From NCBI RefSeq assembly GCF_044324785.1, contig NZ_CP172127.1: a DNA stretch of 64,000 nucleotides, one strand, 5' to 3'. The translations under genes were made by a program, and so were the position numbers. This stretch comes from Escherichia coli. Its GTDB lineage: Bacteria; Pseudomonadota; Gammaproteobacteria; Enterobacterales; Enterobacteriaceae. Within the stretch, counting starts at the first letter, position 1. Each line of letters starts with the position of its first letter. The notes under the pieces are model-generated. The model was not told where the DNA came from. It did no database searches and saw only the letters and a program-made list of their open reading frames with translations. Below, in pieces: positions 13,849-14,047 of this stretch.

Positions 13849-14047
13849 AAATAATTCGAGTTGCAGGAAGGCGGCAAACGAGTGAAGCCCCAGGAGCTTA
13901 CATAAGTAAGTGACTGGGGTGAACGACAAATCCGCATGGAGCGGATTTGAACGCTGCTTGCAGCGGCCCTGTTAAGGGTGAGGCCCATGGATGGGCCGAA
14001 TAACTCGCAGCCGCAGCACATGCAACTTGAAGTATGACGAGTATGGC
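13849..14047. repeat. ERIC/IRU element (long variant) between dxs and yajO
   Basis: Core gtgaagccccaggagcttacataagtaagtgactggggtgaacg at about 13882-13925 matches the ERIC central inverted repeat (ERIC1R/ERIC2 primer targets); flanks aataattcgagttgcaggaaggcggcaa and gcaacttgaagtatgacgagtat also ERIC-like. Confidence 0.65.

Follow-up and report, generated by a model that had tools for sequence, protein, structure and literature searches.

How a repeat of some 200 bp came to lie between two genes of one listed operon, why it is longer than its counterpart in K-12, and whether it matters to either gene are the questions raised by the spacer between dxs and yajO in the stretch of Escherichia coli DNA analyzed here (64,000 nucleotides of contig NZ_CP172127.1, assembly GCF_044324785.1; hereafter the window). 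The sequence at 13843-14043 is a copy of ERIC (enterobacterial repetitive intergenic consensus), a miniature inverted-repeat element (MITE), and its long form is shown to consist in a 78-bp module of four hairpins at the right-hand internal site of the element. The overall reading preferred here, with a probability of roughly 0.8, is that of an ERIC copy seated in the loop of a native hairpin, made long by a nested and dispersed four-hairpin module, and representing near-neutral selfish DNA whose influence, if any, would be modulatory.

The ERIC2 primer sequence matches 13904-13925 and the reverse complement of ERIC1R matches 13882-13903, each with 1 mismatch in a 22-mer, while none of 100 shuffles matched in either case (0/100). 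Together with the central inverted repeat listed in Table 1, these matches bear out what an initial annotation of the window had claimed, namely that the central repeat of ERIC is present with few mismatches. The terminal inverted repeats (13844-13865 and 14021-14042) are 22 nt long and 77% complementary. Further, the match is not confined to the short core, as both arms are fully identical to the ERIC that K-12 carries at the same locus (84/84 bases in the left arm and 37/37 aligned bases in the right arm). Boundaries were set by aligning the spacer with those of strains CS6L (no ERIC), J53 (K-12), and 19KM1831 (a second long-allele strain), which gave a body of 201 bp, or 13841-14045 when the flanking dinucleotides are counted. 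The initial annotation had rightly placed an ERIC in this spacer but had set its ends at 13849-14047, which the alignment displaces. Its estimate of about 200 bp and its suggestion of an internal insertion stand, whereas the extended ERIC-like flanks that it had also described are not the cause of the length: the body measures 201 bp here versus 123 bp in K-12, and the whole difference is one 78-bp block at 13927-14004 that begins right after GGGGTGAACGA inside ERIC. The element does reach as close to yajO as had been stated (about 15 bp), with 16 nt separating its end from the ATG at 14060. It is flanked by TA on the left and by TG on the right (14044-14045), where K-12 has TA on both sides, and the empty site reads CA^TGG, without TA. 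Such flanks are compatible with a 2-bp duplication in the AT register or with none, the register (AT or TA) being ambiguous. The textbook target-site duplication of ERIC, TA (PMC2229807), is not demonstrable at dxs-yajO because the empty site reads CA^TGG.

Comparison of this intergenic region among strains, which had been proposed as a check, revealed a filled/empty polymorphism with clean junctions and three spacer lengths. Among 5,426 complete E. coli genomes, about 2,579 (about 47.5%) have no ERIC and a spacer of 54 bp, about 2,717 (about 50%) have the short ERIC of 123 bp (K-12 type) in a spacer of 179 bp, and about 125 (about 2.3%) have the long ERIC in a spacer of 257 bp. With a query that can be covered solely by alleles containing ERIC, the element was detected at dxs-yajO in 2,843 of the 5,426 genomes, and a second query across the right junction detected it in 2,841. 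The roughly 125 long alleles are those genomes with the module sequence of this locus at 95% identity or more; a looser count of 399 takes in the paralogous long ERIC at yehK and is not locus-specific. E. coli 042 is among the carriers of the long allele, as are several isolates from animals and the environment. ERIC occupies a median of 6 places per E. coli genome by megablast, and the 1.1 kb surrounding the present copy is 97-99% identical to nearly all complete E. coli genomes. In strain JNE120442 (locus L006, 1383-1627; loci fetched for comparison are given with the prefix L), the long dxs-yajO allele has a 12-bp deletion that removed most of module hairpin H3, which shows decay of the module in place. 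With three allelic states coexisting, the dxs-yajO spacer appears to be a safe landing site for near-neutral selfish DNA.

The point of insertion is shown to be the apical loop of a hairpin that already existed between the two cistrons and in which an anti-Shine-Dalgarno (anti-SD) sequence pairs with the Shine-Dalgarno (SD) sequence of yajO. The 5' arm of this hairpin begins 7 nt past the dxs stop codon, and its CTCCT at 13814-13818 pairs with the SD AGGAG at 14048-14052; the first bases of the 3' arm come from the end of ERIC and extend the native stem. The empty spacer already folds into a strong hairpin (L002 1910-1956; -28.1 kcal/mol, z -6.1), and the short and long spacers each fold into a single long branched hairpin, with minimum free energies of -80.4 kcal/mol (z -8.8) and -124.5 kcal/mol (z -9.2), respectively. 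For AGGAG, the calculated probability of being unpaired is 0.00 whether the allele is empty, short, or long. Because ERIC lies within the hairpin loop, the native anti-SD/SD stem would survive, and the insertion was probably tolerated through the sparing of this stem. Translation of yajO may normally need ribosomes terminating at dxs to open the stem, that is, the two genes may be translationally coupled. The proposed course of events thus starts with ERIC inserting into the apical loop of the native hairpin. The element would then be transcribed within the xseB-ispA-dxs-yajO message, which is listed as a single operon in K-12 (PMC4421995), and the whole spacer RNA would fold as one long branched hairpin from which the module is predicted to project as a four-hairpin side branch, the native stem persisting at its base with the extension contributed by ERIC. 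Finally, as near-neutral selfish DNA, the element would persist in E. coli in its empty, short, and long states. Since anti-SD/SD pairing is predicted to be intact in all three alleles, ERIC would be tolerated selfish DNA here. An influence on yajO expression or dxs transcript stability had been suggested for it; any such influence, be it on the translation of yajO or on the decay of dxs mRNA, is expected to be modulatory at most.

The block that makes this ERIC long folds as four successive hairpins, H1 to H4, followed by a tail, GAATAAC, that ends the module (-40.5 kcal/mol, z -4.8). RNAalifold applied to a plain MAFFT alignment recovered H1 and H4 only, because H2 and H3 were misaligned; it was replaced by a four-helix structure given by hand and a covariance model (R1) built from 24 diverse module copies. 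The sole R1 match in the window lies at 13924-14004 (68.8 bits, E 6e-13). In the fetched loci, R1 added about 30 credible copies that had been missed by the pattern search described below, the rest of the 49 aligned non-pattern matches being weak or reverse-strand matches to H1. Across an alignment of 150 sequences, standard pairs filled 94.6% of cells as compared to 74.1% after column shuffles and 28-42% with slid partners, and compensatory changes with both sides altered were found at 25/25 helix pairs across the four helices; the alignment was fitted to the model, which favors the structure, but the margin is large. One strand is marked as the constrained strand by the first pair of helix 3, at which G-U predominates. 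UUCG-like or GNRA-like tetraloops are frequent in H2 and H3. In copies outside the search pattern, the H1 stem co-varies too, and GGA is kept in both the H1 and H4 loops in 25/25 copies while the stems vary, with NNGGA, AGGAAA, and AGGAUA among the H1 loops and CAGGAUG, CAGGGAUG, CAUGGAUG, and CAAGGAUG among the H4 loops. No Rfam family captures the module, and no Rfam match reaches its gathering score.

Further E. coli ERICs, namely those at yehK-yehL (UTI89), at rpiA-argP (E2348/69), and upstream of gyrA (KFu014), hold the same block (92-96% identical) at this internal position; in long ERICs, this site directly follows GGGGTGA(A/G)CGA. The rpiA-argP copy (L005 1345-1625) and the copy upstream of gyrA (L007 1345-1620) contain a module at each of two sites, left and right. 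The left-site block, at GAGTGA^ATCCCC, has the same hairpins as the right-site block with different stems. A third, AAAACG-type module, in which the GGA loops are lost, occupies a further-left ERIC site in Escherichia (L098 7088-7173; also L017, L055, L119, and L120). A pattern of two conserved hairpins, scanned over one genome per species, gave at least 120 matches. Among those listed are Rheinheimera (many copies per genome), Arsukibacterium, Alishewanella, Halomonas/Billgrantia, Methylobacter/Methylomonas, Methylophaga, Microbulbifer, Rhodanobacteraceae, Lysobacteraceae, Nevskia, and Steroidobacter, as well as Citrobacter, Klebsiella, Phytobacter, Pseudocitrobacter, and Escherichia. Judged by these matches, the module is spread across Gammaproteobacteria, from Escherichia to Xanthomonadales and Methylococcales. 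Its flanks are ERIC or ERIC-like repeats in enterics, Rheinheimera, and Halomonas, and repeats without ERIC similarity in Xanthomonadales (a CCGGA^ATCC repeat) and Methylococcales (small palindromes). The ERIC-like host repeat of Rheinheimera also exists in a short form without the module (a 67-nt copy on the - strand of L012, GGGCTGA|GA|CGAGCC), which parallels short and long ERIC; the arms of this host repeat themselves carry GGA-loop hairpins. In another locus (L121 828-1115), a match to group II intron D1-D4 (RF02005, 54 bits) is directly followed by two tandem modules.

The module is not restricted to repeats. When compared to intact neighboring genes, gene copies of transfer RNA (tRNA) for Met, Ala, and Ser are seen to be interrupted by it exactly within the T- or D-loop (Table 1), at targets of the form ..CG^A and with no target duplication visible at any of these four loci. 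One tRNA-Ser(GCU) copy (L021 5500-5760) was hit twice: its D-loop holds a module and its T-loop a degenerate second copy. A further tRNA-Ser starts at the contig end of this locus. Additionally, hairpin units occur downstream of tRNA-Ser, tRNA-Pro, tRNA-Gln, and transfer-messenger RNA (tmRNA) genes in several bacterial orders. The 3' arm of such a unit repeats the T-arm and acceptor end of the preceding tRNA, in some cases with CCA, and one or two modules sit exactly in its T-loop sequence, GGTTCGA^ATCC. In a Rhodanobacteraceae metagenome-assembled genome (L027 4110-4500), two modules and three GGA-loop hairpins form an array of about 300 nt right after ssrA and its terminator; the array is bounded by GGGGGTTCGA and TTCCCCC, which represent a copy of the tmRNA T-arm that has been split, and looks like a multi-site CsrA/RsmA sponge. 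The ERIC sites of the module (GAGTGA^ATCC, GAGCGA^A) resemble the tRNA T-loop target, and such T-loop-like sites occur in ERIC, in other palindromic repeats, and in spare copies of tRNA/tmRNA 3' ends; the module is possibly targeted to them. Because it is nested in differing host repeats and in tRNA-gene loops across Gammaproteobacteria, we infer that the module is a distinct dispersed element of independent origin. A more far-reaching proposal, put forward tentatively, is that the 'ERIC insertion' of about 75 nt could be an undescribed class of small, strand-specific four-hairpin element that inserts without duplication at T-loop-like GGNTNCGA^ATCC; displaying two GGA hairpins of the CsrA/RsmA type, it would spread CsrA-binding sites, and tandem sponge-like arrays like that behind ssrA in L027, through genomes.

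Several points weigh against a near-neutral ERIC made long by an independently dispersed module. First, the pattern used to find copies forced the conservation of parts of H1 and of the H4 loop. Second, independent mobility of the module is read from where it occurs; outside host repeats, no recent pair of filled and empty sites was found for the module by itself, and no transposase associated with it was identified, no search aimed at transposases having been made. To the best of our knowledge, no enzyme is known for its mobility. Third, near-neutrality is argued from allele frequencies and equilibrium folding, and co-transcriptional folding could differ from equilibrium folding; the distance from anti-SD to SD is 22 nt without ERIC and 225 nt with it. 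Fourth, a weak promoter-like site facing yajO spans the left ERIC junction (13826-13855, + strand; TTAAGA-18-AATAAT, 9/12 matches, a consensus match only), its -35 element being host DNA and its -10 element the end of ERIC. Lastly, two CsrA-type GGA loops of the module lie about 55 nt upstream of the yajO SD, and a real regulatory effect is conceivable because these loops sit near an SD that itself contains GGA.

Two routes could have produced the long allele: either a long ERIC transposed as a unit and the short allele later lost the module, or the module inserted into a resident short ERIC. The alternative that survives best, which nevertheless seems possible rather than probable, takes the long form as the ancestral, complete ERIC and the 123-127-bp form as a deletion derivative, with the module an original part of ERIC that is not separately mobile. 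In comparisons with paralogous long ERICs, the module (92-96%) and the arms (88-97%) have diverged to a similar extent, which fits co-transposition as one unit but is not decisive between gain and loss. Module-bearing ERIC-like repeats occur far outside enterics (Rheinheimera, Halomonas/Billgrantia), and decay by internal deletion is seen in JNE120442. The title of a work cited in PMC10969869, 'Reductive divergence of ERIC sequences among Gammaproteobacteria', is in line with this reading. However, the module occupies at least three sites in ERIC (right, left, and the further-left site of the AAAACG type) and also lies in non-ERIC flanks, in the Xanthomonad-type CCGGA^ATCC repeat and in Methylococcales palindromes, and a simple model of the module as part of ERIC cannot explain the tRNA copies interrupted at T- and D-loops. 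A single-nucleotide polymorphism at the right junction (TGG or TAG) did not polarize the alleles and is uninformative in this respect, TGG being shared by about 1,100 genomes that have ERIC, the majority in its short form.

A second alternative concerns function. The two GGA hairpins of the module might recruit a CsrA dimer, alone or bridged to the GGA of the yajO SD, and thereby let Csr control the translation of yajO and/or the stability of dxs-yajO mRNA in carriers; this is considered unlikely. CAGGA(U/C/A)G is the repeat of CsrB, and (A/U)CANGGANG(U/A) is the optimum for RsmE/CsrA. Two hairpins of the module have a GGA loop, H4 reading C-AUGGAU-G and H1 having the loop AUGGA, and this GGA, retained as described above in all 25 copies outside the search pattern, suggests possible binding of CsrA, as does the short distance between H4 and the SD. 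The binding motif of CsrA is a hairpin with GGA in its loop, such hairpins usually occurring in pairs (PMC4333381), and CAUGGAUG loops, identical to the H4 loop, also define TwoAYGGAY RNA (RF01731, clan CL00106), a proposed CsrA binder (PMC4333381). Paired GGA-loop hairpins are therefore a feature that the module shares with CsrB/RsmZ-type and TwoAYGGAY RNAs. In contrast to Csr/Rsm RNAs, its two GGA hairpins are parted by two small tetraloop hairpins, and it occurs as dispersed repeat DNA, not as one regulated gene for a small RNA (sRNA). The Rfam Csr/Rsm families gave no match on the module, and a literature search for CsrA together with ERIC found no paper. Further, an RNA-level host function should give an orientation bias and is disfavored because none was found: in co-directional gene pairs, 18 copies have the same direction as the flanking open reading frames (ORFs) and 23 the opposite one, with 32 copies between convergent and 11 between divergent ORFs. 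It should be noted that this test uses crude heuristic ORF calls and that 17 cases 'inside ORF' in G+C-rich loci are probably spurious ORFs. The presence of the module here in only about 2.3% of E. coli, the internal deletion in the JNE120442 allele, and the prediction that the SD is fully sequestered even without the module also argue against Csr control. In Gilvimarinus, a TwoAYGGAY RNA (L022 3397-3501, - strand) scores 45 bits, more than the 43 required for gathering, and is separated by about 120 nt from a module and an interrupted copy of tRNA-Ala.

That the structure is a transcription terminator or attenuator, or an independent sRNA or tRNA-like gene, instead of repeat DNA is very improbable, since the very stable fold of the spacer and weak Rfam similarity to sRNAs from RNA-seq (RF02902 at 25 bits; sX7 at 19 bits on a relative) are set against the absence of any stem with a T-run in the spacer (13803-14059), on which a terminator or attenuator was rejected, the absence of tRNA or tmRNA genes in an ARAGORN search of 13700-14200 (0 genes), the lack of an Rfam match at gathering score, the lack of the whole element in about half of E. 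coli genomes, and the listing of dxs and yajO in one operon (PMC4421995). Other candidates for the origin of the module were also rejected. A tRNA-derived insert was considered as the reverse strand of the module has GTTCAAATCC, but ARAGORN finds nothing; a phage origin was set aside on finding 1 match in 2.9 million viral contigs. Literature searches with literal strings of the module sequence returned chance matches only.

Elements of the kind found here, long-form ERICs, are already known. Long ERICs with well-folding (as RNA) insertions of about 70 bp at fixed internal sites were reportedly described by Sharp and by Cromie, Collins and Leach in 1997, and by Wilson and Sharp in 2006. When compared to known ERIC, including its long forms, nothing essential differs in the element at dxs-yajO. 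With ERIC/IRU/RU-1, a 127-bp MITE, it shares the consensus core, the terminal inverted repeats, an intergenic position within an operon, multiple copies, and presence or absence among strains, and the TA termini of that family compare with TA...TG here and TA...TA in K-12 (PMC2229807, PMC10969869). The RU-3 element of Delihas was rejected as a different, 103-bp element. The closest likeness to the module in Rfam is RF02902 (AaHKsRNA22), to which it aligns at full length with the same hairpin order: ACAAA..UUUGAAC, a short G+C hairpin, CCCnnnnGGG, and GAG plus a terminal hairpin. The window scores 25.2 bits, and the two modules of L098 (E. coli ERIC) score 33.0 and 29.1 bits, the best match (33 bits) being the AAAACG-type module; all of these are below the gathering score of 39.8. 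Unlike the module, the Aggregatibacter consensus of RF02902 is without GGA loops in H1 and H4. The family represents Aggregatibacter sRNA 22 from an RNA-seq screen, the main text of which does not call it a repeat (PMC5909427). In the same locus, the right arm of an ERIC (L098 7291-7334) weakly matches part of the model of the Salmonella sRNA isrH (RF01391, 14 bits), a hint that an ERIC arm is included in the isrH family.

Like the element here, ERIC and YPAL of Yersinia and the Correia/NEMIS elements of Neisseria are small palindromic MITEs that are co-transcribed and form long hairpins, and they are reported to change mRNA stability via RNase E or RNase III in an orientation-dependent manner (PMC2229807, PMC3184786, PMC10969869). 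In particular, according to reviews, co-transcribed Yersinia ERICs can destabilize upstream mRNA via an RNase E site, again depending on orientation (PMC2229807, PMC3184786, PMC10969869), a result that may not transfer to dxs-yajO. The module also resembles IS200/IS605-derived PATEs and REP/RAYT elements in having hairpins near both ends, in being inserted, without a target duplication that can be seen, immediately 3' of a short motif (..CGA / ..TGA / ..GGA^A), and in its strand-specific G-U pair. This is a resemblance only, and unlike in these elements, H1 starts at the very junction.

What is new at this locus is the frequency of its three allelic states, the landing of ERIC inside an SD-sequestering hairpin, and the finding that the insert is not specific to ERIC. 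For the locus alone the importance is small, as all that the operon spacer holds is a selfish repeat that is polymorphic, with practical use in ERIC-PCR typing and in the engineering of dxs/yajO expression, for which natural spacers of 54, 179, and 257 bp are available. The wider meaning would be that the 'insertions within ERIC', which have been known for a long time, are instances of a strongly structured module that nests in unrelated repeats and in tRNA-gene loops. If true, this would give a handle on an RNA-level role of ERIC-type repeats and on the location of CsrA/RsmA-titrating RNAs in lineages with none known. The features discussed are collected in Table 1.

Table 1. Features of the dxs-yajO locus (coordinates of the window) and tRNA-linked occurrences of the module in fetched loci (prefix L).
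Feature	Coordinates	Strand	Remarks	Basis
xseB	10774-11016	+		ORF list
ispA	11016-11915	+		ORF list
dxs	11940-13802	+		ORF list; RefSeq names at homologous loci
dxs-yajO intercistronic spacer	13803-14059	+	257 bp	ORF list, sequence, RefSeq annotation of homologous loci
Native hairpin 5' arm, anti-SD	13809-13827	+		Inverted repeat; folds of empty, short, and long alleles
Dinucleotide flanking ERIC on left, TA	13841-13842	.		Spacer alignment
ERIC left arm	13843-13926	+	With left terminal inverted repeat and central palindrome	Identity to K-12, primer sites
ERIC central inverted repeat	13888-13901 / 13906-13919	+	CCCCAGGAGCTTAC / GTAAGTGACTGGGG; span 13888-13919	Inverted-repeat search
Nested four-hairpin module	13927-14004	+	78 bp; absent from K-12 allele; ends uncertain by about 2 nt	Covariance model, fold
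Module H1	13927-13949	+	Loop AUGGA	
Module H2	13952-13965	+		
Module H3	13966-13979	+		
Module H4	13982-13997	+	CAUGGAUG at 13986-13993	
ERIC right arm	14005-14043	+	With right terminal inverted repeat 14021-14042	K-12 identity, inverted-repeat search
Native hairpin 3' arm	14040-14058	+	Contains AGGAG 14048-14052	Inverted repeat, folds
yajO coding sequence	14060-15034	+	324 aa, aldo/keto reductase	ORF list, RefSeq homologous loci, Pfam
Interrupted tRNA-Met 3' fragment	L046		T-loop, GGTT^CGAGCC; module antisense	
Interrupted tRNA-Ala copy	L022		T-loop, TTCG^ATCC	
Interrupted tRNA-Ser copies	L085, L021		D-loop, GGTCG^AAGG	
tRNA-linked hairpin units	L011 8240-8600, L080 4460-4600, L082 3680-3800, L100 11870-11990, L124 120-290			
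tRNA-linked hairpin unit	L114 2800-3090	-		

The names dxs and yajO were taken from the RefSeq annotation of loci at 97.7-99.1% identity. When over-expressed, yajO can stand in for dxs, as it makes 1-deoxy-D-xylulose 5-phosphate (DXP) from ribulose 5-phosphate (PMC8791446). Between yajO and pgpA, at 15266-16843 (+ strand), the window encodes a pentapeptide-repeat protein of 525 aa. In K-12 and CS6L, which do not have this gene, yajO adjoins pgpA; strain 19KM1831 carries it as the window does.

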